Positions 13,047 through 62,743 of a stretch of 64,000 bases of DNA are shown here, in pieces. Position 1 is the stretch's first letter; every line of letters starts with the position of its first letter. Source of the DNA: Promethearchaeia archaeon (GTDB lineage Archaea > Asgardarchaeota > Lokiarchaeia > Sigyniarchaeales > SOKP01); contig JAHQWG010000047.1 in assembly GCA_029856045.1 (NCBI GenBank), positions 160,001-224,000 of the forward strand. The letters are read 5' to 3'. Below the pieces are notes generated by a model. That model had not been told where the DNA came from, did not search any database, and was given only the letters and a program-made list of their open reading frames with translations. The translations under genes and the position numbers were made by a program.

Positions 13047-13409
13047 CTAAAAATTTAAAACCTCTTTAATTTTTTTTACTAATTCTTCAAAATCAAAAGG
13101 TTTTTCAATAAAATCAGCCGCTCCAATTGAAAGTGCTTCTTCTCGAACAGTCTTATCTGCACTTGCAAAAATAATTTTTGGGTTTTTTCCAAGACTAATA
13201 ATTTCTTTTGTGGCATCAATCCCACTTTTGATCGGCATCCGATGATCCATTATAATAATATCCGGTTTTTCTGAAAATAATTTAAATTTATCAACAGCTT
13301 CCTGCCCATTTTTTGCAACCCCAATAATTTGAAATCCCCAAAAACTCAATAATTTTTGATATAGATCTCGGATTGCTCGATCATCCTCAACGATAAAAAT
13401 ATTGGTTAT
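13047..13409 (-). CDS. Single-domain response regulator (CheY-like); probable ATA start
   Basis: Frame extends upstream of the track start to ITNIFIVEDD, which contains the acidic pocket. MDHRMP and KPF present. Only ATA (13409) is available after an in-frame stop; GAGGT SD upstream. Confidence 0.85.
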   Translation of the reverse strand: MTNIFIVEDDRAIRDLYQKLLSFWGFQIIGVAKNGQEAVDKFKLFSEKPDIIIMDHRMPIKSGIDATKEIISLGKNPKIIFASADKTVREEALSIGAADFIEKPFDFEELVKKIKEVLNF

Positions 13410-13413
13410 TTTC

Positions 13414-16209
13414 CTAAACCTCTGGAATTATTATAATAAAATTACTCCCTTTTGAATAATCTCCTTGAACTTTATCTTCCACCCAAATTTCTCCATTACA
13501 AAGTGATACAATTTTTTTTACTAATGATAATCCCAACCCCATACCACTTGTGCTCTTATCTGCTCTATAAGCCCTTTCAAAAATTATCTCTTTTTGATCA
13601 TCAGAAATTCCGTAGCCATTATCAATAAATTCCATTTTAAGAAATTTACTACCCTCTTTTTTAATTTTTGAAAATTTAATGAGAATTTCAACAATTGAGC
13701 GTTCATTATATTTTACAGCATTAATTAATATGTTTTCAAATACATCTATTAAGAGATCATTTGCTTTAGCAAACAATTTTTTTTTTTCAGTCTCAATCTC
13801 TATATTAATTTTTCTCTTCTGGAAATTTTTCTTCAAAATCTCAACTGATTCCTTTAAAATCTTACAAACTTCTATAGATTGTGTAAGAATTTGAGCCTTA
13901 TCCAAATCAGAAAGTTTTTGTATATTTGAGATCAAGGTTGCACCCCTTCTAACTTGCTGTTTTGTGGTATTAAACATACTTCTTACTTCAGGTAATATAA
14001 TTTCCTCACCTAAATAATGAGTAGCAATTTCTATTGAAGATAATATATTTTGAAGAATATTATTCATATCGTGAGTAAAAAGATCCTTATAAAAATTAAC
14101 GCGATTATAAGCTTCACGATAATTCTCTTCCGATTCTTTTAGTTTTTGTTCTGCTTTTTTCCTCTCTGTGATATCCTGTATTATAAATTGTATCAATGAT
14201 TGATCTTCTATCTTTATTAAAGAACCATGGAGATTTGTCCATATTATACCTCCTATTGATCTACTTAATGGAAACTCAAATGATTCTGTAACTTCACCTC
14301 TAAGCGCTTCATTGAATTGCTTTTCGAATAATGATACAAGAGGTTTATTTCTCTCATTAAATGAGAAAATTTCTCTGAAATTTCTTCCGACTAAATAATC
14401 TTTTGTATGCGTAGAAAGAAAATGATTTGTAGCAGTATTACAATCTATAAGATTTCCTTTTAAATCCAAAAGCCCTATGGAATATGGAGAACTTTCGAAT
14501 AAATGTCGATATTTTTCTTCGGATTCCCTTAATTTTTGTTCCCAATTTTTTCTTTCAGTGATATCCCGTATAAGACCATAAAACCCAATCTTTTTTCCTT
14601 CAGAATCACGTTTTAAATAAACAGAACTTTCAATAAATCGTTGTTGTCCATCCTTTCTATTCGTTTTAAATTCTATTGTTGCTCGAGGAATCTCATCTTT
14701 ATAAACCATATTGAACTTCTTAAAAATGTCTTTAATATTTTCCGTATGAATCAATGTGCCATAATTCTTTCCCAATAATTCAGCTTTCGTATATCCAAGA
14801 TATTCAGCTAATCGATCATTGAAAAATTTGAGATTTCCTTTGAGATCTACCTCATAATATCCTTCCTTAATATCTTCAAGAATTCCTCGATATTTTTCTT
14901 CGGATTCTTTAATCTTCCGTTCTGCTAACACACGCTCAGTAATATCACGGCTGATTCCGAACAAGACATCTTGATCATCCCAACGACCTTTAGTAAAAAT
15001 TGTTTCAACGGGAATTATTTTCTCTTCCTTGGTAATAAATGGAATATTACAAGAATTAATTTTACCCTCAACTAAGTCTCTGAAAATTCTAAGCGCACGA
15101 TCGTTTTGGGCAGGGGGATAAATTTTTAATATATTCATTTTTAGCATTTCCTCTTCTGAATAATTTAAGGTTTTTAAAACGGAAGGATTAATGTTGAGAA
15201 AGCGCCCATCGAAATTCAGAACAAATATTAATTCTTGCATAGAATCGAATAACGTTTGTAAATTTGCCTGACTTTCTTGAAGAGCTTCTTCGGTTTGCAT
15301 TTTTTCTATAATTGCACCGGTTTCTTGTGCTATAGTTTGAAATATATTTTTTTCTTCGTTTGAGAAGAAATGACGATTTTTAAAGGCTATATTTATTGTT
15401 CCATAGACTTTATTTTTTACAAAAAAGGGGATACTGGCAAGGGATAATATTCCCCACTTTTTTGAACGCCTAGGATTAAGTTTAGAATAATCCTCGGCAA
15501 ATAGTGGCTGCCCTTCGTTAAAAACAATATTATAAGCACCTTCATCGATTTTAACTCGCTTCACATCTTTAATAAAATCGGAAGGAAGCCCTTTAAAACA
15601 TGCTAATTCAGCAATCCTTGTGCTTTCATCCACTAAATAAATACCTCCCCCTTCAAAATTCATCAATTCAAGGGTTGAATTTAATACATTTTCTAATAAC
15701 AATGATAAGTCCTTAATTTTATTTACTGCTATTATAATTCGGTTTAAAATTTCCATTTTTCTTGCGTATTCTTTTATATTTTCTTCTGCCTTCTTGCGTT
15801 CGGTTATATCTAGAAGTGATGCTACACTTTTTTTTGTTCTAGGAATCATATCGATATTTAGCAATATATCCCGAATATCACCTCTTTTATTGATGAAATG
15901 AAACTCGTAACTTTTTGGAGCAATGTCAGAGGTTTTTCTGCGTGAGTAATGATACTTTTTCATCATCTCTAATTCTTCTTTGATAACAAATTCAGTCCAT
16001 TTTTTTTTCCATTCAATCTCTTCTTTTGAATAACCAGAGAGTTCTTCAAATTTTTCGTTTGCAAGTGAAATAGTGGTGTCCTTCTCGATTATAACAGTTG
16101 CAGTACCTGTATTTTCGAAAATAGTTCGGTATTTTTCTTCAGATTCCTTTAAATTTATTTCCTTCTCTATTCGCTTTCTTGACTCCAAGTTTTTATCTTC
16201 ATTATTCAA
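13414..16209 (-). CDS. PAS-GAF-PAS sensor histidine kinase
   Basis: PAS, GAF, three further PAS, HDMNN H-box, HATPase motifs. Confidence 0.92.
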   Translation of the reverse strand: MNNEDKNLESRKRIEKEINLKESEEKYRTIFENTGTATVIIEKDTTISLANEKFEELSGYSKEEIEWKKKWTEFVIKEELEMMKKYHYSRRKTSDIAPKSYEFHFINKRGDIRDILLNIDMIPRTKKSVASLLDITERKKAEENIKEYARKMEILNRIIIAVNKIKDLSLLLENVLNSTLELMNFEGGGIYLVDESTRIAELACFKGLPSDFIKDVKRVKIDEGAYNIVFNEGQPLFAEDYSKLNPRRSKKWGILSLASIPFFVKNKVYGTINIAFKNRHFFSNEEKNIFQTIAQETGAIIEKMQTEEALQESQANLQTLFDSMQELIFVLNFDGRFLNINPSVLKTLNYSEEEMLKMNILKIYPPAQNDRALRIFRDLVEGKINSCNIPFITKEEKIIPVETIFTKGRWDDQDVLFGISRDITERVLAERKIKESEEKYRGILEDIKEGYYEVDLKGNLKFFNDRLAEYLGYTKAELLGKNYGTLIHTENIKDIFKKFNMVYKDEIPRATIEFKTNRKDGQQRFIESSVYLKRDSEGKKIGFYGLIRDITERKNWEQKLRESEEKYRHLFESSPYSIGLLDLKGNLIDCNTATNHFLSTHTKDYLVGRNFREIFSFNERNKPLVSLFEKQFNEALRGEVTESFEFPLSRSIGGIIWTNLHGSLIKIEDQSLIQFIIQDITERKKAEQKLKESEENYREAYNRVNFYKDLFTHDMNNILQNILSSIEIATHYLGEEIILPEVRSMFNTTKQQVRRGATLISNIQKLSDLDKAQILTQSIEVCKILKESVEILKKNFQKRKINIEIETEKKKLFAKANDLLIDVFENILINAVKYNERSIVEILIKFSKIKKEGSKFLKMEFIDNGYGISDDQKEIIFERAYRADKSTSGMGLGLSLVKKIVSLCNGEIWVEDKVQGDYSKGSNFIIIIPEV

Positions 16210-16450
16210 TTTTAATCATCATTTTTTTATTTTAATGTTAATACTCACATATTATCTAAAATTATTAAATTAAAATTTAAGTAGGAAAATAATTGAATTA
16301 GAAAATTTTGATTCTTGATCTTTATATTTAATACAAATATTTCATATAAAGTTTAAAATTATTTTATATACGAAATTCGATTATATTTAAAAATTTCATA
16401 AAAATTAATTTAGGATATAAATTAAGAAGAAAAAATGTAGGGATTTAAAT

Positions 16451-17242
16451 TTACATAAACAATTGCGAATATCTTTCCTTTGATCCGGGTTCTTTTTGCG
16501 ATAAATGCATCTGTTGAGCTTTTTGGGCTAATTCCATCATCTTATTTTTTATTTCTTTACCACGTTCTAATAAATCTGAGACATCAACTCCTAATTGATA
16601 AATAGTATTAAGAGCCTTAATTATTTCTGCACCTCCTTCTGGTGTCGGAATCTGCTGGTAAGCATCAGTAAATAAGATATATGCATCAATAGGGTTGTTT
16701 AAGCATTCATTTAATATTGTGGCTTCAGGTCCTACGACTAAACCTTTGGGTATAATTTCAAGTCCAAGCTTTTCAAGTTTTTCCTTTATCTCTTTCTCAG
16801 CAGCAAAGAAAACTTTAAATTTTTCTACCATATTCAATGTTGGAATACCTTGCAGTATTACCATTTCCTTAGCTTTTATATCTTGGGACAAAGCCCAATT
16901 ACAAATTGTCCTGGCGAGGTCAGAATAATCTTTTGGGGTAGAAAAGGGGAGATCGCAAACACCGACAACTATATTTTTACTTTCAGAATAGTATAATCTA
17001 AAGGGGCGCTTTAAGATCCCATCTGTAAACACTGCAATAGGCGGAAATGAATCGCTTGCAACAAACCCAATTTGTTTAATATCTTCAATTTTTTCAACTA
17101 ACTCGTTAGTCACAATTGGTCCAATTAATCCGATTCCTGCAAATCCTAAAATAACCGTGGAATTTGGCTGAATTTCTTTAGGATCAACCCCTAAAACAAT
17201 CCTACTTCTTTTGCCTTTCTCACAAATATATACTTTGGTCAT
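16451..17242 (-). CDS. Proteasome assembly chaperone (PAC2 family)
   Basis: ILGFAGIGLIG.I, FPPIAVF.DG...PFRLY, P.PEGGA, VD.SDL.E. Confidence 0.8.
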   Translation of the reverse strand: MTKVYICEKGKRSRIVLGVDPKEIQPNSTVILGFAGIGLIGPIVTNELVEKIEDIKQIGFVASDSFPPIAVFTDGILKRPFRLYYSESKNIVVGVCDLPFSTPKDYSDLARTICNWALSQDIKAKEMVILQGIPTLNMVEKFKVFFAAEKEIKEKLEKLGLEIIPKGLVVGPEATILNECLNNPIDAYILFTDAYQQIPTPEGGAEIIKALNTIYQLGVDVSDLLERGKEIKNKMMELAQKAQQMHLSQKEPGSKERYSQLFM

Positions 17243-17434
17243 AATATTCTCACAAAAATTTGAGTTTCAATAAAAGTAATTGTTTTGTATATAATTAATT
17301 ATTTTGTAATATTAACTAAAAACGATATATAAGAGAAAATTTTTATTAACTTCTAAGATATTAAAGAAAAAGTAAATTTATTAAAATCATAAAAGAGTAA
17401 TTAATATCATATAAGAAATTAATGGTGTGGAGAA

Positions 17435-18028
17435 ATTTCAAAGAATATTCCAGATGTATCAAATTTAATATATTTTATTCATTTTGGAACGAAGGAACAT
17501 ATATATTTTTCTTGGAAATCAAAATATAGACCAAAGGCTTTCATTTTTGATTACGCAATTGCAAAGAATGCCCTCAAAACCGATATATATTATCAATTGA
17601 ACAAGGGGGATGTTAAAATAGTTTATATTAAAAAAAATAGTTTTATTTATATAATTGGGGGGCATATTTCAGTCCAATATCAAATCCTTGAAGCATTAAT
17701 TGAACATCTTTCTATAAAATTTATTGAAATTTATGGAGATGTTCTAAAAGAAATTTTTGATATTGGAACAGATGATTTCTTTAAAGATTTTATTTCAAAA
17801 ATTGAAAATTCAATTAAACATATTCCTAATCAAATTGGGAAAATAATTAACGTATATTGCAGAATTTGTGGCGAATATGTAAATGTTTACGTGAAAGATA
17901 GCTTAATTGAAGATGCAGAAGATTACCCAGTCGCTTTAGTATATATGCACCATGGGCACTCTCTTTTGTTATATATTGATGCAGATTTTAAAGTGAGGGG
18001 AGCCGAAATCGTTTCAATTACCGGTTAG
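17435..18028 (+). CDS. Hypothetical protein, longin-like N-terminal part plus CxxC...HxxH C-terminal domain; probable ATT start
   Basis: Frame is open from 17423 (stop at 17420); ATT at 17435 follows GGTGTGGAG. C-terminal CRIC...YPV...HHGH.LLLYIDADFKVRG. Longin resemblance is inference. Confidence 0.65.
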   Translation: MSKNIPDVSNLIYFIHFGTKEHIYFSWKSKYRPKAFIFDYAIAKNALKTDIYYQLNKGDVKIVYIKKNSFIYIIGGHISVQYQILEALIEHLSIKFIEIYGDVLKEIFDIGTDDFFKDFISKIENSIKHIPNQIGKIINVYCRICGEYVNVYVKDSLIEDAEDYPVALVYMHHGHSLLLYIDADFKVRGAEIVSITG

Positions 18029-18643
18029 AGATAACCCCTCAACCTTTGTTTTTAAAAAGCGTTCTTGTTTGAATATTCTTCTTGTTAAAATATCAAAAGG
18101 CTCATTAATTTTGATACCAGTTTTTGAAGATACCTTTAAATAATCATCCAAATTATACCTTTCTCTCAATTCTAAAGGATAAATATCATCCACAGATATT
18201 TTTTCTCCTAAATCAAGTTTTGTTCCTAATAATAGGATCGGAAGGTTTGGATCCTCATCTCGAATCATTTTAACCCATTCTTCTATCCTATTAAGAGTAG
18301 TCATTCGAGTGAGATCAAACATCAAGAGAGCTCCGTATGCTCCGTTTAGATAATACTGCAAAATTGATCGAAATTGTATTTCTCCTCCTAAATCCCAGAG
18401 TTGCAACTTATACCCCATTCCGTCAATTATAATCTCTTTTAGAAAAAATTGAACACCTACCGTTAGCTTAGTATCAGGTATGAATTTTTCTTCTACATAT
18501 CGATGTAAGAAAGTTGTTTTACCTACACCACCTTCTCCTGCGACAATAATCTTTAAAAAATCTTTTGGTTTGGTTTCTTTCTTTTCCTTATCTTTTTTGA
18601 TGCTGACAGTAGGCTTTTTTTTTCGCTTTTTAAATAACTTCAT
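18014..18643 (-). CDS. Rab-like small GTPase (Ras superfamily)
   Basis: GEGGVGKT, LTVGVQF, LQLWDLGGE, GTKLD, SSK. Confidence 0.92.
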   Translation of the reverse strand: MKLFKKRKKKPTVSIKKDKEKKETKPKDFLKIIVAGEGGVGKTTFLHRYVEEKFIPDTKLTVGVQFFLKEIIIDGMGYKLQLWDLGGEIQFRSILQYYLNGAYGALLMFDLTRMTTLNRIEEWVKMIRDEDPNLPILLLGTKLDLGEKISVDDIYPLELRERYNLDDYLKVSSKTGIKINEPFDILTRRIFKQERFLKTKVEGLSLTGN

Positions 18644-18695
18644 AAAAATATGAATTCCATATTCTATTAGTTATTGAAAAATTTATTACTTTTTT

Positions 18696-19064
18696 CTAGA
18701 AATTCCACCATCCATAAATTATGGAAATAATACCCCCAATTAAAACAACGAGATTCAATACGAGATCGCCTTTATTTGAACTAAATCTACCTTGCTGTTT
18801 GTTATAAGTTAGATCTATTAAGCCTAAAAACACTAAAGCGCCTCCAGAAATTAAACTGAAAATTACTCCAAAACTTTCTCCTAAAAAATTTCCGATTGCA
18901 GCCAAGATCAAGATCGGAACAACCCAGCCAAGGTCAGGTACTGGAAAGCTTCTTTCATGGCTTAAATAAGCTTCTGAATTTTCCGGATTTTTATTTTGCA
19001 CCTTGAAAAAATCAATCCAAAACCAAATAATCGCTGCGCTTCCTAATATTTGCAAGATTGCCAT
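18696..19064 (-). CDS. Hypothetical membrane protein
   Basis: Four hydrophobic segments; HERSFPVPD loop. Confidence 0.7.
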   Translation of the reverse strand: MAILQILGSAAIIWFWIDFFKVQNKNPENSEAYLSHERSFPVPDLGWVVPILILAAIGNFLGESFGVIFSLISGGALVFLGLIDLTYNKQQGRFSSNKGDLVLNLVVLIGGIISIIYGWWNF

Positions 19065-19188
19065 TAAAATATTAAAAATTTTTTATCGACTCCAATTGAT
19101 TTAAAATTATTTAATATAATTATATGCATTTAATTAAATTAAGAGTTTTTCAAACTTTATATACTAAAATGTTTAAAGGTGATAAAAA

Positions 19189-19986
19189 ATTTTTGATAAA
19201 TTTTTAGAAGGAAAGGGTGCCGTTATAACTGGCGCTGCTTCTGGGTTTGGAAGAGATATTGCCTTAAAATACGCAGAATTAGGTGCAAACTTGGTTTTAA
19301 ATGATATTAATGAGGAAGGACTTGAAGAAACCACAAAAATGGTGAAATCAAAATTTGGTTCTGAAGTTCTACCTATTAAAGCTGATGTGTCAATTGGGGA
19401 TGAAGTAAATCAAATGAGGAAAAAAGCCTTTTCTACTTTTGATAATATATTTGTGCTAGTTAACAATGCAGGAGGAGGTGTCTCGTCTTTTAAAAATATT
19501 CTTGCCAGAACAGAAGAAGATTGGCATAAAATTTTAGATATTAATTTAAAAAGTCAATGGTTGATGGCTAAAGCGTTCTGTAGAAAAATGAAACCACAAA
19601 AATTTGAACCAATATCTGGGAAGGTAATTAATATGGCTTCAATAGCTGGTGTGCGGCCAGAAGCACAAACACCCGTGTATAGCATAGCTAAGGCTGGAAT
19701 TATTGCGTTAACAAAAATATTGGCAGCACAACTCGCACCAAAAATGACGGTTAATAGTATAGCTCCTGGATACCATATAACTGGACTGTATAATAATTCA
19801 GAACAAGCATTAAAAGACGCGATGGAGGTTCAGGGTATAAAAACCCCCTTAAATAGATTGGGAACAGTTGAAGATGTGTCAAAAGTTGCTGTATTTTTAG
19901 CTTCACCCCTCTCTGATTTCATTACAGCTCAAAATATCGTTGTAGATGGTGGCGTAATTACAGTAGGTGTGGCTGCACATTTATAA
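19189..19986 (+). CDS. SDR-family oxidoreductase (FabG-like); probable ATT start
   Basis: The Rossmann motif TGAASGFG lies upstream of the track start. In-frame stop at 19183, ATT at 19189 after AGGTGA SD. NNAG, YSIAK and VDGG present. Confidence 0.9.
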   Translation: MFDKFLEGKGAVITGAASGFGRDIALKYAELGANLVLNDINEEGLEETTKMVKSKFGSEVLPIKADVSIGDEVNQMRKKAFSTFDNIFVLVNNAGGGVSSFKNILARTEEDWHKILDINLKSQWLMAKAFCRKMKPQKFEPISGKVINMASIAGVRPEAQTPVYSIAKAGIIALTKILAAQLAPKMTVNSIAPGYHITGLYNNSEQALKDAMEVQGIKTPLNRLGTVEDVSKVAVFLASPLSDFITAQNIVVDGGVITVGVAAHL

Positions 19987-20224
19987 ACTAATTATTACCT
20001 AAAAATATTAAAATTTTATTTTTTCTTTCTATATAAAGGCGGAAATGAAAATCTTTTTTATCAAACGCTGGTTTTGGAAACAAGATTCTACTTCAAACTC
20101 ATTAAATATTAGTATATTGTTGGAAATAAACAAAATTTTAATCTGAAAAAAAATCATCTTACATTTATTAGTTCTTTCTAATAAAATATAAAAACAAATT
20201 TAAAATTAAGCCCATAACTATGAT

Positions 20225-36327: not shown

Positions 36328-36458
36328 AAACCAAAGTCCCTTTAAAAATAACACAATAAATATCTATTATTTTATTAATTTATAGTCTTAATATTTTTAA
36401 TATTTATTAATTTAAATTTCCTAATAATATATTAGAAAATATAAGAGGGGAAATAATT

Positions 36459-36593
36459 CTGGCAAAGTATGAATGTACGGCTTGTGGCTATATTTATGAC
36501 GAAGAAGTAGAAGGGACAAAATGGGAAGACCTCCCTGATGATTGGACATGCCCAGTATGCGGAGTAGGAAAAGATATGTTTGAAAAACTTTAA
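36459..36593 (+). CDS. Rubredoxin (44 aa, missed by track); CTG start
   Basis: (M)[43 protein letters not shown]; GAGGGG SD at 36445-36450. Confidence 0.93.
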
Positions 36594-38001: not shown

Positions 38002-39402
38002 ATGGATTTCAATTTAACAGACACTCAAAAAGAATTGCAAAAAAAAGCACAGGAATTTGCAATTAAGGAAATCTTGCCAGTAGCAGCTAGTTACGATGAA
38101 CATGGGAAATTTCCAATTGAAATTATTGAGAAAGCCTATAAGGCAGGTTTAGTGAATTTAGCAATTCCAAAAAAATATGGGGGACCTGGTTATGGTCTCT
38201 TAGAATCTGTAGTAGTTGTTGAGGAAATTGCTGCGGCTTGTCCCGGATTCGCAACATCCATATTTGCAAATAATTTAGGAGCAGAGCCAATAATTTTAGG
38301 AGGTAATGAAGAACAGAAAGATAGAATATTAGGAGAATTAGTAAAAAAATTTACTTTAATTTCTTTTGCTACCTCTGAACCTGGAATGGGTTCTGATGTT
38401 GCTGGAATTAATTGTCAAGCTCAAAAAGATGGAGAAGATTATATTTTAAATGGTACAAAGTATTGGATTACCAATGCAGGTTATGCAAAATATATTTCTC
38501 TATTTGCGACAACGGATCCAGCAAAAAAACATAAAGGAATATGTGCTTTTATTTTACCAACTAATTTAGTAGGAGTTAAAACAGGAAAACCAATTCCTAA
38601 ATTGGGGCATAGAGCATCGAATACCACTTCTGTGGTTTTAAAAAATGTGAGAATTCCAAAAGAAAATATATTGGCTCATCCAGGGAGAGGTTTTATTTTA
38701 GCAATGCAAACATTTGCTCACACTCGTCCAGCCATAGGAGCTTTTGCTACAGGTTTAGCAAGATCCGCTATGGAATATGTGATTGATTATGCAAAAAAAA
38801 GAGAGACTTTCGGAAGACCAATAGCAAATTATCAAGCTATTCAGTTCAAAATTGCAGAAATGTATAAAAATATTGAAGCTAGTCGATTATTAACCCATAA
38901 ATCAGCATGGGAGACAGATCAAGGGTTAGATAATACATTAAGTGCAGCATGTGCAAAAGCATTTGCCTCAGATGTTGCTATGCAAGTAGCTACTGAAGCT
39001 ATTCAAATAATGGGAGGTTACGGTTATATGAAAACATACCCATTAGAAAAGTTATTCAGAGATGCAAAACTATTTCAAATTTACGAAGGCACCTCAGAAA
39101 TCCAGAGAATAATTATTTCAAGATTTGTGATGAAACAATATAAACATGGAATGCCCAATTTATATGAACTCCCAAGAATTGAGGTAGAAAGAGAAGAAGA
39201 AGTTGAAATTCCGCCAATTTCATTAAAGACTAGTGAGGAACTGGGAGGAAAATACAGATGTACAGTGTGTGGATATATTTATGATCCTGTAAAAGGTGAT
39301 CCAGATAGTGGAATCTCTCCAGAAACTCCATTTGAAGAAATTCCAGATGATTGGCATTGTCCAGTATGCGGAGTTTCAAAGGATAAGTTTATAAAATTAT
39401 GA
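38002..39402 (+). CDS. Acyl-CoA dehydrogenase with C-terminal rubredoxin domain
   Basis: [31 protein letters not shown]; C-terminal [15 protein letters not shown]...WHCPVCG. Confidence 0.93.
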
Positions 39403-39426
39403 TTATTTTCTTGTAGGTGCGATAAA

Positions 39427-41085
39427 ATTACGGAAAAGAATGTATTCACATTTATAGTTGGGGGTAAAGCTGGTCAAGGTGTTAAAAAAGCAGGTTCAGT
39501 TGCTTCTCAACTTTTTATAAATAAGAGTCGTTTTGTATTTCAAATAGACGATTACATGAGTTTAATAAAAGGAGGACATAATTTCTCGATTGTTAGTACT
39601 TCTACTAGATGGATTAGTAGTCATTATATGAAAGCTGATCTAATTGTTAATTTTGATAAAAGAAGCTATGATAATCATATAGACCACCTTTCTGAAGGTG
39701 GTTTAATGGTCTATAATTCTGATATTAAAGGAAATATGGGTGGTATAGGTATTTCTTTAACAAGCGAAGCAAAAAGATTTCCTAATCCTAATTTAATGCT
39801 TGGAGTTGGTGCTATTGCTATATTAGGGGCGACCATTGGCGTTAATAAAACAGAGTTAAATGCATTAATAAAGAATGAATATTCTAAAGGTGTTAAAGAG
39901 AATATTTCTTATGCCAATATTATTTATGATATTGTTTATCCTATAATTGGAGGGAAATTCCAATTAGAAGGTGGATCTAAAAAAAGACCGAATATCTCGG
40001 GAAATCAAGCAATAGCATTAGGAGCAATAGCAGGTGGATTAGATTGTTATTACGCTTATCCTATGACACCAGCCACATCCATCCTACATTATCTTGCTGC
40101 AATAGCAGATGATTTTGGACTTGCAGTTATACATCCCGAAAATGAAATAGCAGTTATAAATATGGCTATAGGATCAACCTTTACTGGAGCGAGGTCAATG
40201 GTTGGTTCTAGCGGCGGAGGTTTTTCTTTGATGGCTGAGGGAATTTCATTAGCTGGTATAATCGAATCACCTGTATTAATTGTATTATCCATGAGACCTG
40301 GACCAGCTACGGGCGTTCCAACTTATACAGAACAAGGAGATTTAAATTTTGCTTTAAATGTGGGTCATGGGGAATTTTTACGCATCGTTGCTTCTCCAGG
40401 AACTATAGAGGAGGCATTTTTTCTTACAGCTCAAATGTTGGATTTAGTATGGAAGTTTCAAACTCCTGGAATATTACTCACAGAAAAACATTTATCAGAG
40501 AGTAGTATGACAGTCGATATAAATTTAAATGACACTATTTGGGCTGAACCACTGCTTTATAAAGATGGAGAATATAAAAGATATTTAGATACGAAGGATG
40601 GAATATCCCCCTTATTATTTCCACCATCAAAGGAAATACTCAAATGGAATAGTTATGAACATGATGAGTTTGGATTTACAACCGAAGATCCTCAATGGAT
40701 TAAAAGGATGCATGATAAACGAAATAAAAAGTTTAAATCATTAAAAAATTACCTTATGAAAAAAAAAACAATAAATATTTTTGGGGATAAGGGGCCAATA
40801 ATAATTACATATGGTTCAACGGTGATGAGCGTATTAGAAGCATTAAAGTATGGTAATATTGAGGCTAGAGTTGTACAACCAATTTTTTTGAGTCCGTTGC
40901 CTATTTGGGAGCTTGAAAAATTTAAAGACCAAGAAGTTATTGTTATAGAGCAAAGTGCTATAGGTCAATTTGCTAATTTACTTAAAGAAAATATGAATAT
41001 TCAATTAAAAAAAGTAATAAAGCAATACGATGGAAGACCTTTCGACCCAATAAAATTATCTAAAAAAATTAAGGATGTGGTATAA
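39427..41085 (+). CDS. korA: 2-oxoacid:ferredoxin oxidoreductase alpha subunit (gamma-alpha fusion); probable ATT start
   Basis: GGKAGQG lies upstream of the track ATG; in-frame stop at 39400, ATT at 39427 after AGGTG. YPMTP, ENEIA, RPGPATG.PT, GHGE present. Confidence 0.9.
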   Translation: MTEKNVFTFIVGGKAGQGVKKAGSVASQLFINKSRFVFQIDDYMSLIKGGHNFSIVSTSTRWISSHYMKADLIVNFDKRSYDNHIDHLSEGGLMVYNSDIKGNMGGIGISLTSEAKRFPNPNLMLGVGAIAILGATIGVNKTELNALIKNEYSKGVKENISYANIIYDIVYPIIGGKFQLEGGSKKRPNISGNQAIALGAIAGGLDCYYAYPMTPATSILHYLAAIADDFGLAVIHPENEIAVINMAIGSTFTGARSMVGSSGGGFSLMAEGISLAGIIESPVLIVLSMRPGPATGVPTYTEQGDLNFALNVGHGEFLRIVASPGTIEEAFFLTAQMLDLVWKFQTPGILLTEKHLSESSMTVDINLNDTIWAEPLLYKDGEYKRYLDTKDGISPLLFPPSKEILKWNSYEHDEFGFTTEDPQWIKRMHDKRNKKFKSLKNYLMKKKTINIFGDKGPIIITYGSTVMSVLEALKYGNIEARVVQPIFLSPLPIWELEKFKDQEVIVIEQSAIGQFANLLKENMNIQLKKVIKQYDGRPFDPIKLSKKIKDVV

Positions 41086-48418: not shown

Positions 48419-48670
48419 TTATTTTATTAGTTTTTTAAATAAAAATATTAAATCATTATCTTCCTTTCTAAAACCTAAGATCTCGGTGCCAGTCCTTTTT
48501 GCCCACCTATGCAAATCTTCATCAGCAGCAGGATCATCTGCTATAACTTTGAAAATTTGGCCATAATCAAGTGTTTCGTATAAATTTCTAACCTCAAATA
48601 AGGGTTCAGGACAATACAATCCTCTTGTATCTAATTCTTCTTCAATTTCTTTATTTTCTTCACTTTTCAT
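48419..48670 (-). CDS. tusA: TusA/SirA sulfur carrier
   Basis: LDTRGLYCPEP, ADDP; ATG at 48670 after GGAG is preferred over the track TTG at 48691. Confidence 0.88.
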   Translation of the reverse strand: MKSEENKEIEEELDTRGLYCPEPLFEVRNLYETLDYGQIFKVIADDPAADEDLHRWAKRTGTEILGFRKEDNDLIFLFKKLIK

Positions 48671-48987
48671 TTTACGAGTCTCCTTTTTCAAATTTAAAAT
48701 ATTTAAATTACAAATTAAAAAGGATTTATTAATAAATTCTAATCCTTAAATAAAGACAAACCAGAAAAAACTTAAATATTCTCATTATTTTTTAATGAAA
48801 ATATTTGTATTTTGAAATACTACAATAAATACTATAGGAATTAATTTTATAATATATAAATTTCAAGCAAAATGATGATTAAAATCTATCAAATTCCAGT
48901 TTTGTTAATTTATAACTTTTTAAGATAAAGTCTTAAATGTATGATATTCTTAGTTATTTCATATTATTCTTTTAAATCAATGCGATT

Positions 48988-54490: not shown

Positions 54491-54498
54491 TTCAAAAA

Positions 54499-55221: not shown

Positions 55222-55614
55222 TTATTTTGATTTCCATAAACCGTGAATATTACAGTATTCTCTAGCCCAGAGTCCTTCAGTATCTGCTACTACAAATGTT
55301 GCTTTAGGTTCATCGCCTGGCTTAAGAAATTTCCTTTTATAGCAATTATCCTTGCAAATTAATTCTATCCATTCAATCCAATGCTCATCAGTCATTGGAT
55401 GAGCCATATCTGCAACAATTCCAATCGAAACAGTCACTTTATTCCCATCAATTTCTATATAAGGAACATGTTTTTCTCCTTTATAATCAGCGGTTTTTGG
55501 TTCCATTAATTTCATATCTTGTCCGCAACATACGAGAGTACCGCCTCCAGTATGTAGGACTTCAACAATATTACCACAAACTTCACATTTATAAATTTCT
55601 TTTAATTGAGTCAA
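55222..55614 (-). CDS. dfx: Desulfoferrodoxin (2Fe superoxide reductase)
   Basis: YKCEVCGN...CCG, EKHVP, HPM..EH.IEWI, YCNIHGLW. Confidence 0.95.
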   Translation of the reverse strand: MTQLKEIYKCEVCGNIVEVLHTGGGTLVCCGQDMKLMEPKTADYKGEKHVPYIEIDGNKVTVSIGIVADMAHPMTDEHWIEWIELICKDNCYKRKFLKPGDEPKATFVVADTEGLWAREYCNIHGLWKSK

Positions 55615-55695
55615 GATTCTTTCACCCTTTTTTATATGTTTATTTATTGAATATTTTGATTTTAAAAATTATTTTCTAATAAATATTAAAATAAT

Positions 55696-56280
55696 TTAAA
55701 ATTCTTCACATTTTTTTCGGTAGTTTGCTCTTGGATGATCACAAGCAGGGCACCTCCAATCTTCTGGTAATTCGTCCATCTCTACTTCATAACCACACTC
55801 CATACATACCCAAACAATCTTCTTCCCACGTTTGAAGAATGCATCATCACCGACTAGTTTTAAAAGCTTACCATAGCGTTCTGAGTGATGTTTTTCTGCA
55901 CGAGCAATGGATCTCAATCTGTTAGCAATTTCTGGATATCCTTCCTTTTTTGCAATATCTGCAAATCCGGGATACATTTCCTGCCATTCATAATTTTCTC
56001 CAGCAATTGCAGATTTTAAGTTTTCCTCGGTCGTTCCATAAGTTGTAGGTCCTGCAGCTTGAACTTCCAAATCATCAAAACTTTCTTCTTTTTTTAGATC
56101 TTGTAACATTCTATAATTCCATGTTGCGTGTTCTTTCTCTTGGTCAGCGGTTTCAATAAAAAATTTTGATATTAATACATACCCTTCTTTTTGTGCTATT
56201 TTAGAAAACATGGTATATCTCATTCTTGCTTGAGATTCGCCCATAAAGGCAACCATTAAATTTTGTACTGTTTTTTTCAT
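55696..56280 (-). CDS. rbr: Rubrerythrin
   Basis: AF.GESQA, EKEHA, GE.YE...MYP, E.HH, CMECG...CPAC.H. Confidence 0.95.
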
Positions 56281-56499
56281 TATTTTTAACCCATCAATTT
56301 AATATTTATTTTTAAATATTTCTTAAGAAATTTTAATTTTTAAATAATGATATTTCCGTTAATGTAAATATCTAAAGATTATATTTTAAAAATTAAATTA
56401 AAAATTAACTTAAGATATAGGAATCTCTCTTTCTAAATGTTTAATAATATTTTAAAGTTAAATTGAAATTCTCATTTTAGCAAATATAAAGAAATAAAA

Positions 56500-56655
56500 T
56501 TATTTTTTTTTCATTTTAACCTTATCTCTCTGAAGTCCCGTTTCTCTGCTAGATGGAAGAGCAGTACCACAATGGTTTTTTTGAGCTTCTTTTAATTTAA
56601 AAGCTCTTTCCAATTCCTCTTCTACTTCTTTATCAGTTAATTCTTTATTACTCAT
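56500..56655 (-). CDS. Small hypothetical protein (51 aa)
   Basis: MSNKELTDKEVEEELERAF...HCGTALPS...; co-oriented between the FTR gene and rbr. Confidence 0.5.
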   Translation of the reverse strand: MSNKELTDKEVEEELERAFKLKEAQKNHCGTALPSSRETGLQRDKVKMKKK

Positions 56656-56700
56656 AATAATCAAAGAGAAAACGGAAAATAAAAAGATCACGTTTAAAAA

Positions 56701-57057
56701 TTATAAATTTTCTTCAGCTTTTCTTTGCAAATCAATTGGTCTCCTCTCAGGAACATTTACAAATTCCAAACCCTTTTCATAGAAATTTGAAGCTAAATAT
56801 AAATTGCAATAACATGCCCCATATTCTTTTATATCTGCTGGGGCATAATCACATGGACAAATTAAATCATGATCTAATTCCCTCTTTCCTGAAGCTAATC
56901 TACATGGACAAGATTGATATCCATATCTTAATTTATTATTTAATAATCCATCTATTAAATCCTTAAGAGTCTCTTTATCCTTATTAAGATTCCAATTATT
57001 GGTTTTAGCAACTTGCTTGCAATATTGAATCATCCCATCTTTAGTTGATAAATTCAT
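56701..57057 (-). CDS. Ferredoxin:thioredoxin reductase catalytic subunit
   Basis: CPC...CPC...CYC motifs, VPERRP. Confidence 0.92.
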   Translation of the reverse strand: MNLSTKDGMIQYCKQVAKTNNWNLNKDKETLKDLIDGLLNNKLRYGYQSCPCRLASGKRELDHDLICPCDYAPADIKEYGACYCNLYLASNFYEKGLEFVNVPERRPIDLQRKAEENL

Positions 57058-57064
57058 TTCATAC

Positions 57065-57388
57065 TCACTCCCTTTTAATTAATTTTTTATATTTTTCTGG
57101 ATCGTATCCAACGAGAGGTTGATCGTCAACGATTAAAAAAGGAAAAGCAATTCTTTCTTTATAGGTTTTTCTTAAACAATCTAAAATTGCTTTTTTTGTG
57201 TTTTTATCTATTTTATCTACATCGATAAATCTATACTTTATATTATTATCATTTAAATACTTCTTAGTTTTCTTACACCACATGCATGTACTTAAAGTAA
57301 ATAATGAAATCTTTTGAGAAGTTTTACTTCCATCGACTATATTAAATTCTTCTTTACAAAAATCGAACATTACATCAGCATTAGACAT
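57065..57388 (-). CDS. Glutaredoxin/NrdH-like protein
   Basis: LSTCMWCKK, FP, VGY; adjacent to FTR. Confidence 0.88.
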   Translation of the reverse strand: MSNADVMFDFCKEEFNIVDGSKTSQKISLFTLSTCMWCKKTKKYLNDNNIKYRFIDVDKIDKNTKKAILDCLRKTYKERIAFPFLIVDDQPLVGYDPEKYKKLIKRE

Positions 57389-57845
57389 TTCTTATTTTCT
57401 ACTCCCATTTTAATAATTGCTAATAATGATTATTTTTATTTATTACAAATTCAGTATTTTTTCAATTTTTTTGACATTTTCTTTCCAATTATATTCTTTT
57501 CCATCTCAAACTCAAGTAAATATTTGAAAAATTAGAATTTGTTGTATATAATTTATAGAAATTTTTTCTCAAATTAAAAATGAACAAGTTTATTTTTAAC
57601 TTTTTATGTATAAAATATTTAAAAAAAAAAAATGATAAGAGTAATTAGTGTTTTCTCTTCACTTCAATTGAAATCAAGAGAATTGCCTAAAAAATTTCTT
57701 AATTTAAAAATATCGCCAAATTTTATTATCAGTTAATATTAAATAAACGGAATTATATAATTTCTTTTTTAAAATTTATCCCTTTGCAATTTTCTTTTTA
57801 TTTTATAATCAATAAAATTAAAGTTTTTAATTAGTATTTTATCTT

Positions 57846-58073
57846 GTGGAAGTTTCAAACTGTTCAGCGAAAGCTTTTCATATTATTAGAGAGAATAAAT
57901 GCTCAAAATGTCAAACATTCGACTGTGAAAATGCATGCTTTAGAGGGATCTATAAAGTAATAAACAAGGATTTGGTACCAAAATGTATTGTGGTTAAAGA
58001 AAGAGAATCGTTCTGTGTAAAATGCCACCTTTGCACAACTGCATGCAAATATAAGGCAATCGAAATATTATAA
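57846..58073 (+). CDS. Small 2x[4Fe-4S] ferredoxin-like protein
   Basis: CSKC....CENAC and CVKCHLCTTAC..KAI. Confidence 0.8.
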   Translation: MEVSNCSAKAFHIIRENKCSKCQTFDCENACFRGIYKVINKDLVPKCIVVKERESFCVKCHLCTTACKYKAIEIL

Positions 58074-58168
58074 ACTTCTATTTAAGTATATCCAAAATAT
58101 ATGAAAATTTTATTATTACCATTTACACTTTATATTAATAAGAGTTAATAATGGAGTGAAAAAAGTAA

Positions 58169-58720
58169 ATGTCAAAACAAACCTTTAACGAGAAATTGGG
58201 AATTGACAATGATGATAAAAAAATAATAGAAATGCTTGAGGAGAATCCAGATTTAACGCATAGTTATATAGCTGAGGAAATAGGAAAGAGTCAGCCTGCT
58301 ATTGGAGCAAGAATTCTAAAATTGGAGCGAAAGCATCTTATAACCAAACAAGTTGGATTGAATCTTAGAAAAGTTGATTTAGATGTTGCAATTGTTCAAA
58401 TTTCTACACGAGATGTTGAAGAAATCATAAAAAAAGTTAAGGATTGCCCTTTCATTAATTATGTATTTAGAATATCTGGTGAATTTAATCTTATGGTTGT
58501 TTTGGCTGCCTCTGATTTAAACATTATAGAAAAAATAGTAGATCTATGTTTTCGTAATGATAAGAATGTATTAAACGTAAAAACCAATTTTATAATATCT
58601 GCAGAGAGAGATTTCGTTATACCTATTGATTTTAAGATTGAAAAATTTGATGGCAACTCTTGCGGACCAAATTGTTATCTAAATAAAAATAGACCAACAA
58701 TAAATATTAAAAGAGATTAA
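58169..58720 (+). CDS. Lrp/AsnC family regulator
   Basis: ID.DD.KII..L, SQPAIG.RI.KLE, SGEFN. Confidence 0.88.
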   Translation: MSKQTFNEKLGIDNDDKKIIEMLEENPDLTHSYIAEEIGKSQPAIGARILKLERKHLITKQVGLNLRKVDLDVAIVQISTRDVEEIIKKVKDCPFINYVFRISGEFNLMVVLAASDLNIIEKIVDLCFRNDKNVLNVKTNFIISAERDFVIPIDFKIEKFDGNSCGPNCYLNKNRPTINIKRD

Positions 58721-58731
58721 ACCTTTTCAAT

Positions 58732-59265
58732 CTACGCATTAACTTTTTCAATTAATCTTACACAATCTTCTCCACAACCTTTTTCTTTGGTGGGATTTTG
58801 ATCTTCAGACCTGAAATCCACTGGAAGGATTAAATCTTTAGCAATGTCAACTACAATTTCCATTTTAACATTTGTTATATTTTTATTGTTCCTGAAGTGA
58901 TAATTTACCATATTATCTAATTTATTCAAATTCGAGGCGGTGAGTAATAATAGGATATTTTCCTCGCCCGATAACTTAAAACAATTAATTATAAACGGGC
59001 AGACTTTCGCCATTTCAAAAATATCATTGGGATCTTTAGTTCTTAATGTCACCGATGCTAAAAATAGATCAACTTTCTTAAAATTAACACCTCTTTGCAA
59101 CTCCAGAAGTCCTTTTTCCTCCAATTTATGAATACGCATACCTACAGTAGGTTGGGATCTAGAAATCTTATCTGCTATTTCCATATGTGTCAAAGTGGGG
59201 TTTTCCTGCAACAAATCAATTATATTCCTGTCAACTTCGTCAATTCTAAATTTTGATTCAGTCAT
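58732..59265 (-). CDS. Lrp/AsnC family regulator
   Basis: IDEVDR.II.LL, SQPTVG.RI.KLE, SGEEN. Confidence 0.88.
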   Translation of the reverse strand: MTESKFRIDEVDRNIIDLLQENPTLTHMEIADKISRSQPTVGMRIHKLEEKGLLELQRGVNFKKVDLFLASVTLRTKDPNDIFEMAKVCPFIINCFKLSGEENILLLLTASNLNKLDNMVNYHFRNNKNITNVKMEIVVDIAKDLILPVDFRSEDQNPTKEKGCGEDCVRLIEKVNA

Positions 59266-59444
59266 TTTTTTAAAATCTTTTTTTTTACAATTTTAAATTG
59301 AAATTCGGATACTTATAAAATATAAATTAAAGGTTTTTAAAAAAATTTTACAAATTATTTTGATATTCTTTAAAAACTTTTTATGTTTTGATCATAATGA
59401 ATATTTTTTCAACACATAGGATATTTTATCCGTAATTCCTTAAA

Positions 59445-60395
59445 TTATCCACTTGAAATAATAATTACTGCTATTAAAATTAGAATACCTCCGAATAATG
59501 GAACCAAGATATCCTGCTCAATGCCTAAAACAAAAGAAAAAAGTAGAGTCAAGAAGGGTTCTGCATAGAGAAATGATGCGACTTTTGAAGCTTCAAGTTT
59601 TTTCATACTTGATGCCCACAAAATCCCTCCAATTACACTTGCGATAATTGCAAGATAAGCAACATTTAAGATAACAATGGGATTAAGGAAATTTTCAAAA
59701 AAGATAGGCAGTTCACCTAAAAATATAACAAATAAAAATAATTCAATAGTTCCAATATATATTACATAACGCATGGTTTGAGCGGGTGTTAATTTTTTTG
59801 TTAATTTTTTCAAGAGGATAGAATATGCAGCCCAAATAATTGGCTGGCCTATACCGAGAAGATTTCCAAATAAGTTTTGAGAAAACAGATTTAAATTATT
59901 AATATCGCCACGTGTCATTAATATTAATGTGCCTATTGTTGCTAAGATAAAACCGATAATTTTAAGATAATTTAATTTTTCCTTGAAGAAAATTATTGAT
60001 AATATCATAATGAAAATTGGGGATAATAAACATACTAATAAGGCGGATGTCGAAGGTCCAATCAATTCTATTGCGTTGTATTGGACAATATAAAAAAGGG
60101 AGCCTCCAAGAAAGCTGCAAGCTAAAATTAAAACATAATCTTTTTTTTTAAAATTTAAATTATTTATTATCTCTTCATTATTCTTAGAAATCTCTTGATC
60201 ATTTTTCATGGAACTATTCTTTTTTTTCCATATTTTTTCAAAAAATGTTATCAGTAAGAGAGCAAAAGATGCAATTATGAACCGATAAAAAGCAATTGTA
60301 ATTGGAGTTAAATAATTAATAAGATTATCGACTATAATAAATGAGAAACTCCAAAAAACTATTAGTATCCCCAATAGGACGTATTCTTTTTTCAT
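59445..60395 (-). CDS. EamA/DMT transporter
   Basis: 10 TM, FWS.SF, AF.RF, KEK, Y.EP. Confidence 0.88.
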   Translation of the reverse strand: MKKEYVLLGILIVFWSFSFIIVDNLINYLTPITIAFYRFIIASFALLLITFFEKIWKKKNSSMKNDQEISKNNEEIINNLNFKKKDYVLILACSFLGGSLFYIVQYNAIELIGPSTSALLVCLLSPIFIMILSIIFFKEKLNYLKIIGFILATIGTLILMTRGDINNLNLFSQNLFGNLLGIGQPIIWAAYSILLKKLTKKLTPAQTMRYVIYIGTIELFLFVIFLGELPIFFENFLNPIVILNVAYLAIIASVIGGILWASSMKKLEASKVASFLYAEPFLTLLFSFVLGIEQDILVPLFGGILILIAVIIISSG

Positions 60396-60561
60396 TGATG
60401 ATAAGCAGATATATTAAAAATGTTAATTTAAACAAAGAAGAGTGGTTTATTACTTTTTATCTTGAATAGATATGTAAATGAAAATTCCATATTATGTCGA
60501 TATTACATAGTAATATTTAGATCTACTTCAAATGTATATCTAGATAATATAACATAATTTC

Positions 60562-61773
60562 ATGATTTATATGGAATTTCAAGAGCCTATTATAAGAAAG
60601 GTCGATTCCTTTAATTTAGATTCCTTTCAAGATAGAAGATTAAAAACTTTTTTGAATGCAGGGATTAAAAATGCTTTTCCATCCAAAGAAGGCATTAATA
60701 TTCCGAAAAAGGGAGATTCCGATGAATTCTTAGCGGATTTATTAAATGTTTTGAATATTAAGACATTGGTTGTAGGAGTGGGAGGAGCCGGCAATAATAC
60801 AGTATCTCGATTGCAAGAGGGGGGGATTATTGGAGCTGAGACATTAAACGTAAATACAGATGCTCAAGATTTGTATTATTCACATGCGAGTTCAAAGTTA
60901 TTGATTGGAAAAGAAATTTCCAAAGGGTTGGGGTCAGGAAATAATCCTGAAATAGGAAAGGAATCTGCTGAATGTGACGTTAAAAGAATTAGAGAATTCA
61001 TGGATGCAGATGTAGTATTTTTAACGTGTGGATTAGGAGGAGGTACAGGAACTGGTGCTACTCCTATTATTGCAAGAGAAGCAAAAAAAGCAGGTGCCGT
61101 CGTTGTTACTTTCTGCACATTACCGTTTGGAATGGAGGGAGAAAAAAGGAGCTTGCGCGCGAATAGTGCATTAAGAGAATTAGCACAATATTCGGACTCG
61201 TTAATTCCCATTCCAAACGACCGTCTATTTAAGTTGGACCAAAACATTTCAATGATGACTGGATTTAAGATTATGGATGAAGTTCTTGTCAGAAGTTGCA
61301 GATCTTTGGTAGGTCTTATAAATAATTGTGGGATGGTCAATTTAGATTATGCTGATGTGAAAAATGTTCTTAGAAAAACTGGGAAATATCCATCAGGAAT
61401 TATTGGAATCGCTGAATCAGTAGGAGATAAAAATGACCTTATAAATAAAACAAAATTGGCTATTAATAATCCCCTTCTAGAACCCGATACAAAAAAAATT
61501 GATCAGTGCATAGTTTCAATATCTGGAGACCATGATATTCCATTATCAAAAATAGACAACGTAGTATCCACTGTTTCAAGTGAAATATCTAAAGAGGCCG
61601 ATTTAAAATTCGGTGCCATGATAAATCCAACTTTGGGTTCAAAAACTCAAATCCTATTTTTAGGAAAAGGACCGATTTCTCCATTATTACTTAAAGCGGT
61701 TAATTCGGAGGAAGGTAGGAACGATATTGAAGAAGATATGGGTTATAAAAATGTAATTAATCGCCTTTTTTGA
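60562..61773 (+). CDS. ftsZ: Cell division GTPase FtsZ
   Basis: VGVGGAGNN, NTDAQ, GLGGGTGTG, PF..EG, N.DYADV T7 loop. Confidence 0.93.
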   Translation: MIYMEFQEPIIRKVDSFNLDSFQDRRLKTFLNAGIKNAFPSKEGINIPKKGDSDEFLADLLNVLNIKTLVVGVGGAGNNTVSRLQEGGIIGAETLNVNTDAQDLYYSHASSKLLIGKEISKGLGSGNNPEIGKESAECDVKRIREFMDADVVFLTCGLGGGTGTGATPIIAREAKKAGAVVVTFCTLPFGMEGEKRSLRANSALRELAQYSDSLIPIPNDRLFKLDQNISMMTGFKIMDEVLVRSCRSLVGLINNCGMVNLDYADVKNVLRKTGKYPSGIIGIAESVGDKNDLINKTKLAINNPLLEPDTKKIDQCIVSISGDHDIPLSKIDNVVSTVSSEISKEADLKFGAMINPTLGSKTQILFLGKGPISPLLLKAVNSEEGRNDIEEDMGYKNVINRLF

Positions 61774-61901
61774 TTAATTACATCCTTTTAATTTTAAGTT
61801 GTTGATTATTTATTCTAATAATTCATATCATAGGCCAATATATTTCAAAATTATTCATTAGAGCAATTTTAAATTAGATATCATATTATGCTTTTTTAAC
61901 G

Positions 61902-62528
61902 ATGATTCAATTTGACATTAAAACCATAGTTTTTGATTTAGGTGGTGTATTATTCACATCGGGGACAACATTAGCTATAAAAAAAATTGCAATTAATTAT
62001 GGAATTAATTATAGAAAAGTCGGAGTAATATTTCTTGATAAAACTCATGAACTGGGCTATAAATTAAGGAGTGGAATGATCTCTATGGAAGAGTTCTTAG
62101 ATAATGTAATTAAAAAACTAAATTTGGAAGAAGAAGATAAAGAGCATATACAAAATATTTGGTTTAATTCGTATATACCTCATTTTGGAATGTTTGATTT
62201 AATAAAAAATTTGAAGAAAAATTATAGATTAGTGATTTTTAGCGGAAATGTTAAAACGAGGATAGCTTTTCTTAATAAAAGGTATGATTTTCTGAAATAT
62301 TTTGATGATTACGTTTTTAGTTATATTTATCATCATAATAAAAAAGAAATAGAATTTTATAATGAATTGATCAATCATCTTGGGTGTGAGCCAAATCAAT
62401 CTTTATTAATTGATGATAGTAGTAAGGCCGTTAAAATTGCCCGATCTCTTAATCTAAATGCAATAATTTATTATTATCCTGAGAAGTTAATTAAAGATTT
62501 AAAAAATTTTAATATAAAAATAAATTAA
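61902..62528 (+). CDS. HAD-superfamily hydrolase
   Basis: FDLGGVL, FSGN, K, LIDDS. Confidence 0.88.
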   Translation: MIQFDIKTIVFDLGGVLFTSGTTLAIKKIAINYGINYRKVGVIFLDKTHELGYKLRSGMISMEEFLDNVIKKLNLEEEDKEHIQNIWFNSYIPHFGMFDLIKNLKKNYRLVIFSGNVKTRIAFLNKRYDFLKYFDDYVFSYIYHHNKKEIEFYNELINHLGCEPNQSLLIDDSSKAVKIARSLNLNAIIYYYPEKLIKDLKNFNIKIN

Positions 62529-62542
62529 CGAGAGGGAATGCT

Positions 62543-62743
62543 ATTCCGAAGAAATGTAAATGGTATAATTGCTGCCCATTGAAATTTTTTTACGAGCAGG
62601 ACAATTTAGAAGAAAAATGGGTCAGAGATTATTGTTGGATAGGCAATAAAAATTGCATAAGATATCAAAAAGAAGAAGCTGGAATACCTCATCCAGATAA
62701 TATGATGCCAGATGGTAGTATAAGAGAGGATTTAAAATATTAA
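62543..62743 (+). CDS. Small Cys-rich protein (66 aa, missed by track); probable ATT start
   Basis: IPKKCKWYNCCPLKFFYEQ...WVRDYC...CIRYQ.EE.G.PHPD.M.PDG; GAGAGGG SD; ATG at 62538 is out of frame. Confidence 0.7.
   Translation: MPKKCKWYNCCPLKFFYEQDNLEEKWVRDYCWIGNKNCIRYQKEEAGIPHPDNMMPDGSIREDLKY

Follow-up and report, generated by a model that had tools for sequence, protein, structure and literature searches.

Near-cognate ATT and ATA codons behind Shine-Dalgarno sites as probable translation starts in an AT-rich Lokiarchaeial genome

Results

Six genes with near-cognate codons at the expected N terminus

The window analyzed here is the whole 64,000-nucleotide stretch at positions 160,001 to 224,000 of contig JAHQWG010000047.1 (G000:C51:160001-224000), from a metagenome-assembled genome (MAG) of a Promethearchaeia archaeon that comprises 3.34 Mb in 55 contigs at 30% GC. 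Near-identical DNA occurs in public sequencing runs from marine sediment and salt marsh belonging to 15 studies. Six genes in the window have no ATG, GTG, or TTG at the expected N terminus and present a near-cognate codon (ATT, ATA, or CTG) behind a Shine-Dalgarno (SD) sequence:

13047..13409, minus strand: response-regulator gene, 120 amino acids, predicted start ATA 13409-13407
13418..13422, minus strand: SD GAGGT of the response regulator, 8 nt before ATA 13409 (normalized spacing 7, the mode for ATG starts)
17435..18028, plus strand: hypothetical gene, 197 amino acids, candidate start ATT 17435; SD GGTG at 17424-17427, 7 nt upstream
19189..19986, plus strand: SDR gene, 265 amino acids, predicted start ATT 19189; SD AGGTGA at 19177-19182, 6 nt upstream
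36459..36593, plus strand: rubredoxin gene, 44 amino acids, predicted start CTG 36459; SD GAGGGG at 36445-36450, 8 nt upstream
39427..41085, plus strand: OFOR alpha gene (gamma-alpha fused), 552 amino acids, predicted start ATT 39427; SD AGGTG at 39415-39419, 7 nt upstream
62543..62743, plus strand: Cys-rich gene, 66 amino acids, predicted start ATT 62543; SD GAGAGGG at 62530-62536, 6 nt upstream

An earlier sequence-only reading had placed these six starts 6-8 nt behind an SD, and every coordinate, codon, and SD motif matched when the sequence was re-read. The same reading had credited four of the genes with an in-frame stop just upstream; those four stand, and the count was low, as all six have an in-frame stop 1-17 codons upstream. 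No ATG, GTG, or TTG lies between that stop and the near-cognate codon, or anywhere from the stop to the conserved N-terminal domain. In the long forms, the Pfam domains start at residues 3-15 (Response_reg at residue 4, adh_short at 10, Rubredoxin at 3, and POR at 15), and the first canonical codons fall inside or beyond these domains. Initiation at the first canonical codon would cost the response regulator 20 residues (TTG 13349), the hypothetical protein 54 (TTG 17597), the SDR 34 (TTG 19291), OFOR alpha 43 (ATG 39556), and the Cys-rich protein 12 (TTG 62579); rubredoxin has no usable canonical codon.

The near-cognate codons align with orthologous starts

Each protein was queried against 25-40 related genomes, and the DNA was read at the aligned N termini, a comparison that the sequence-only reading had itself proposed. 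In all six genes, the near-cognate codon corresponds to the start-codon position in other genera, with the offsets given below for OFOR alpha and the hypothetical gene.

For the SDR, the frame is closed upstream by TAA 19183-19185, and the TGxxxGxG motif precedes TTG 19291, in agreement with the earlier view that ATT 19189 is needed for this motif. The start codon is ATA in three genomes of the same genus and ATG or GTG, at the same codon, in other genera. Relatives read ATT in place of an out-of-frame ATG upstream of the gene (19169).

Three same-genus genomes retain the rubredoxin CTG but not the adjacent ATT/ATA. The CTG aligns with the ATG of orthologues at 17 loci and with TTG at one, giving an N terminus of MAKY/WEC, and rubredoxin without this upstream CTG start would lose its first CxxC.

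The claim that OFOR alpha needs ATT 39427 for its GGxAGQG motif also held: GGKAGQG precedes ATG 39556, and the stop of the upstream gene (TGA 39400-39402) lies in the same frame. Translation from the ATT would give the N terminus M-TEKNVFTFIVGGK. The arrangement of AGGTG, 7 nt, and ATT is kept in two same-genus genomes. Among orthologues in other genera, ATG occurs one codon downstream in 14 genomes and at the aligned codon in one; in two genera (G008 and G009), ATA stands at the position of the downstream ATG, behind GGTGA.

The Cys-rich gene has a stop upstream (TAA 62510-62512), and its CKWYNCCP motif precedes TTG 62579. At its start position, three same-genus genomes have ATT and a fourth has ATC; other genera have ATG or TTG (MPKVCKWY).

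The response-regulator start lies directly behind the stop of a histidine-kinase gene (TAG 13416-13414), and its own frame contains TAA 13430-13428 upstream and no canonical codon until TTG 13349. The Pfam Response_reg domain spans residues 4-115, and a start at TTG 13349 would remove the IFIVEDD strand. Three same-genus genomes retain the ATA and differ synonymously in codons 2-3; in other genera the start codon is ATG or TTG, also ATT or ATA.

The hypothetical gene follows a different course. Its frame has a stop at TAA 17420-17422 and no canonical codon before TTG 17597. In three same-genus orthologues (L042-L044), the start is an ATG in the place of AAG 17441, and the combination of GGTG, 7 nt, and ATT, two codons upstream of AAG 17441, is present only in this genome; the same-genus relatives have no GGTG. 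Loss of the start and gain of the SD appear to coincide. The gene is 82-84% identical to its same-genus orthologues, compared with 89-97% for neighboring genes. Its extension carries 11-13 nonsynonymous versus 6-7 synonymous codon changes, and a third-position substitution bias is still present. ATT 17435 is best regarded as a candidate start, probably a recent replacement; it is the best candidate for this gene and the least secure of the six.

In the segments that lead from the near-cognate to the first canonical codon, differences from relatives were also assigned to codon positions. Third positions account for 7 of 8 differences in the response regulator, 5 of 5 in the SDR, and 5 of 6 in OFOR alpha; judged by this pattern, these extensions evolve like protein-coding DNA.

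Public gene calls agree with the expectation of the sequence-only reading that such starts would truncate or hide genes. OFOR alpha is recorded with 509 amino acids from ATG 39556, not 552, in twelve public contigs that carry the gene, and rubredoxin is uncalled in the four contigs displayed. The gene immediately upstream of OFOR alpha (38002-39402, plus strand) is an acyl-CoA dehydrogenase with a C-terminal rubredoxin domain according to Pfam hits in public gene calls, and the cluster around it includes the free rubredoxin, a flavo-diiron-type protein, and a rubredoxin-reductase-like gene. Further candidates in the window were set aside. ATT 48733, behind AGGA and before a TusA-like gene (48419-48733, minus strand), was rejected in favor of a plausible downstream ATG start (MKSEEN...), and ATT 28962 and ATT 19079 were unconvincing.

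ATT and ATA are enriched in frame behind orphan SD sites across the genome

The genome-wide test used 2655 stop-to-stop open reading frames (ORFs) of at least 120 codons, covering 85% of the genome. At canonical starts, 5-mers of AGGAGGTGA peak 7-8 nt before the start codon, counted after the GGTG position, and a 5-mer SD precedes about 10% of genes. An orphan SD was defined as such a 5-mer that precedes the first canonical codon within the open frame at a distance too great to serve it (n = 116). Codons behind orphan SDs were counted at spacings of 5-10 nt in the reading frame and in the two other frames.

ATT was found 30 times in frame versus 1 and 3 times in the other frames, and ATA 34 times versus 7 and 2, a combined 64 in frame versus 13 out of frame. 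The in-frame counts peak at spacing 7 (14 cases for ATT and 13 for ATA), the same mode as for ATG. The near-cognate codons share the SD spacing of canonical starts, and the pattern lies far beyond chance. As an interior control, 6900 SD-like 5-mers within genes gave 0.19 ATT plus ATA per site and, at spacing 7, ATT in 23 of 794 and ATA in 7 of 513. The presence of an SD 5-10 nt upstream of the near-cognate codons argues for leadered mRNAs and against leaderless initiation.

Other codons gave less. ATC occurred 8 times in frame versus 1 and 4, with an excess only behind the strongest SDs, and CTG 3 times versus 2 and 0. The start class named by the sequence-only reading (ATT, ATA, and CTG) is therefore upheld for ATT and ATA; CTG has no genome-wide enrichment, and ATC, which was not in that class, is weak. 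The rubredoxin CTG, for which orthology is the evidence, would be an isolated case. A separate excess was seen for TCA, with 13 in frame at spacing 7-8 behind orphan SDs versus 3 and 0, and TCA may represent the codon after the start, placed nearer to the SD.

In total, 62 ORFs combine a 5-mer SD with a near-cognate start, compared with 255 that have a 5-mer SD at the first canonical start. When 4-mer SDs and ORFs of at least 60 codons were included, the background-corrected estimate was about 130 near-cognate starts among 3212 ORFs. By these counts, near-cognate starts make up roughly a fifth of SD-led genes and no less than about 4% of all genes. The earlier figure of a tenth of genes describes the window (6 of about 60); genome-wide, only the lower bound of about 4% could be demonstrated, with about 10% at the upper edge of looser scans.

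Near-cognate starts in related genomes

The same orphan-SD test was applied to relatives, using samples of 0.15-0.8 Mb; these are small, and the genomes are related rather than independent, so that p-values are indicative only. An in-frame excess was present in two other genera of the family (16 versus 10 in G020 and 6 versus 3 in G014) and in two genomes of a second family (12 versus 7 in G032 and 8 versus 2 in G038). No excess was found in the small sample from a 53% GC relative of a third family (G033, 3 versus 4). This distribution fits near-cognate starts as a trait of the AT-rich members of the order.

The genetic code and the initiator tRNA

Reassignment of AUA to Met, as in mitochondria, is not seen at the internal codons of OFOR alpha: ATA aligns with Ile in 57% of cases and with Met in 5%, ATT with Ile in 52% and with Met in at most 5%, and ATG with Met in 68%. 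Because internal ATA and ATT align with Ile, the genetic code is unchanged and the effect is specific to starts.

Inspection of the initiator tRNA, another check proposed from the sequence alone, yielded one initiator-type gene with a canonical CAU anticodon, within an incomplete tRNA set. This gene (C27:220560-220656, minus strand) has an A1:U72 pair, three G:C pairs in the anticodon stem (GGG/CCC), a CUCAUAA loop, a 21-nt intron in the anticodon loop, and an encoded CCA. Whole-genome ARAGORN runs without and with introns missed it. ARAGORN in both modes and an anticodon-arm pattern together returned a partial set, and Rfam RF00005 gave 28 hits, again an incomplete set. A tRNA-Sec gene is present on contig C1 of the same genome (G000 C1:2264-2356, minus strand), and the organism therefore probably makes selenoproteins. 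Ras-like GTPase genes are present as well.

Alternative explanations

Near-cognate codons at these positions could reflect base-calling or assembly errors, or frameshifts that disconnected the genes from an out-of-frame ATG upstream. Such an ATG does lie just upstream of three of the sites (17422, 19169, and 62538), and an A6T5 homopolymer run lies between ATG 19169 and the SDR frame. However, same-genus genomes carry identical near-cognate codons, as do contigs from independent samples and studies; this agreement confirms the codons and answers the concern about base errors that the sequence-only reading had raised. Four contigs from independent samples, with 12-76 differences from the window, match it exactly across the start regions of OFOR and rubredoxin, and a contig from run X7 spans 18926-20120, including ATT 19189, without any difference. 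A contig from the salt-marsh run X4 lacks one A at 19184, in the SDR spacer; this deletion shortens the SD spacing by one, leaves ATT 19189 and its frame intact, and does not bring ATG 19169 into frame. Relatives have neither ATG 19169 nor ATG 17422, and random errors cannot yield a genome-wide signal in both frame and spacing. For practical purposes, the sequence comparisons refute this explanation, and we regard the probability that remains to it as negligible. The X4 contig also means that the SD-to-start spacing of the SDR is 7 or 6 nt within the population, and the same variation is found between this genome and its same-genus relatives.

It is also very unlikely that the start codons have simply been lost, with translation proceeding only from the downstream canonical codon or the genes decaying as pseudogenes. 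The hypothetical gene, which lost its ATG only here and evolves fast, is the case that best suits such a history. Across the other genes, truncation would remove the phospho-acceptor strand with its DD from the response regulator, TGxxxGxG from the SDR, GGxAGQG from OFOR alpha, and the first CxxC from rubredoxin. Substitutions in the extensions are of the third-position, synonymous kind, the near-cognate state persists across the genus and recurs in other genera, and the in-frame excess of ATT and ATA is located precisely at SD spacing 7.

Where C34 of tRNA-Met carries an f5C34-type modification, as in animal mitochondria, AUA, AUU, and AUC starts are routine. The codons here could likewise be served by a modified C34 that reads AUA and AUU, by a second initiator tRNA, or by a change to AUG at the mRNA level, and the tRNA set recovered from the MAG is incomplete. 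We consider these options, taken together, quite unlikely: the single initiator-type tRNA found has a normal CAU anticodon loop, internal ATA and ATT are Ile, so there is no general reassignment, and to our knowledge no editing turns U into G. Translational coupling was rejected as a requirement, since only 31% of genes with an ATT, ATC, or ATA start lie within 40 nt behind an upstream ORF on the same strand, compared with 50% of canonical SD-led genes.

Several observations count against genuine initiation at near-cognate codons with the ordinary initiator tRNA. Neither the orphan-SD scan nor the 4-mer scan gave a genome-wide in-frame excess of CTG or ACG. The hypothetical gene, given the loss of its ancestral ATG in this genome only and its rapid evolution, may be decaying. 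A second, unusual initiator tRNA may exist, the recovered tRNA set being incomplete. Set against the whole of the evidence, these points leave it highly likely that the near-cognate codons are genuine translation starts, read by mismatch decoding of the ordinary Met-tRNAi after an SD.

In such a mechanism, the SD would pair with the 3' end of 16S rRNA and thereby position in the P site the codon that lies about 7 nt downstream. On AUU or AUA, and rarely on AUC or CUG, the ordinary initiator tRNA (CAU) would then be accepted, with the mismatch tolerated at the third position (for CUG, at the first), and the proteins would begin at the near-cognate codons, presumably with Met. AT mutation pressure would keep turning ATG into ATA or ATT, and the machinery would tolerate the change.

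The aIF1 gene has a weak start of its own

The sequence-only reading had pointed to aIF1 and aIF2 as factors to inspect. The aIF1 (SUI1) gene of this genome, which lies outside the window (C27:190754-191113, plus strand), contains no ATG at all. Its sole GTG sits in the SD-like AAGGTAGTG, and nine nucleotides later comes ATA CCT AAT..., which reads (M)PNDQNICPKC; in Methanocaldococcus jannaschii aIF1, two residues precede the aligned EICPRC. For 15 of the 20 family loci (12 genera; relatives among L247-L276), no canonical codon precedes the zinc knuckle, and the open frame extends only 7-12 codons upstream of the first Cys. A conserved ATT, replaced by ATC in one genus and by ATA in the genus studied, stands 6-7 codons ahead of that Cys. 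The aIF1 gene of the second family starts at TTG, GTG, ATG, or ATA. The gene of this fidelity factor therefore has a conserved weak start site, and the near-cognate codon sets it apart from aIF1A (TTG), aIF2 beta (TTG), and aIF2 alpha (ATG).

In this Lokiarchaeial order, aIF1 could set the stringency of start-codon choice through a feedback loop, with its own weak ATT/ATA start limiting its level and the hundred-plus ATT/ATA-started genes forming a regulon that follows aIF1 availability. We offer this as a tentative proposal, and a rather doubtful one.

Discussion

Our analysis indicates that an AT-rich Lokiarchaeial genome routinely starts genes at ATT and ATA codons behind an SD. Decoding by Met-tRNAi would be expected to be less efficient than at AUG and may be controlled by aIF1. 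aIF1 makes Sulfolobus solfataricus 30S complexes reject AUU (PMC4705826, PMC6237735); therefore, this lineage would either tolerate low efficiency or have a less stringent checkpoint. The terms used in the sequence-only reading, relaxed start selection that could tune expression, may be apt in this sense.

Asgard proteomes have been mined heavily for eukaryote-like proteins, and nearly all of these proteomes come from gene finders that accept ATG, GTG, and TTG only. Should ATT or ATA be the start of at least 4% of genes in AT-rich Lokiarchaeia, many database proteins would lack their N-terminal motifs and others would be absent. An archaeon with aIF1, aIF1A, and aIF2 would also tolerate third-position mismatches at a frequency unreported for archaea in the literature searched and, together with the weak aIF1 start, would offer a testable system for the evolution of start-codon stringency on the line to eukaryotes.

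SD sequences have been described as "not prevalent" (PMC7531240) and "rare" (PMC12993045) in Lokiarchaeia, and our data agree with this published view in that the SD serves a minority of genes. In the same two papers, the archaeal start codons given are AUG, GUG, and UUG only. The literature that we searched held no report of routine ATT or ATA starts in Asgard archaea or Lokiarchaeia, which is not proof that they are unpublished. A near-cognate start behind an SD is a known mechanism, and its routine use in Asgard archaea is new relative to the literature searched.

NCBI translation table 11 lists ATT, ATC, ATA, and CTG as alternative initiators, and Escherichia coli infC and pcnB are started at AUU behind an SD. 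The genes described here resemble infC and pcnB in placing a near-cognate codon at normal SD spacing and, presumably, in using the ordinary initiator tRNA. Unlike in model bacteria, where a handful of special genes do so, about one in five SD-led genes and at least 4% of all genes are involved here, among them ordinary metabolic and signaling genes, and the archaeal host has initiation factors of the eukaryote type. An AT-rich genome and frequent ATT, ATC, or ATA starts are features that this organism has in common with animal mitochondria and Mollicutes (NCBI tables 2, 4, and 5). In mitochondria, however, internal AUA is Met and there is no SD, whereas here internal ATA and ATT are Ile and the starts depend on an SD.

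The closest parallel for aIF1 lies with factors that guard start selection. Bacterial IF3 discriminates against near-cognate starts, and its gene, infC, has an AUU start; eIF1 has an AUG in poor context (PMC4705826). The start of aIF1 is weak in a similar way, with ATT, ATC, or ATA and a long spacer conserved over 12 genera. The likeness concerns the start site, and, unlike in infC and eIF1 autoregulation, many other genes of the same genome share the weak codon with the gene of the factor.

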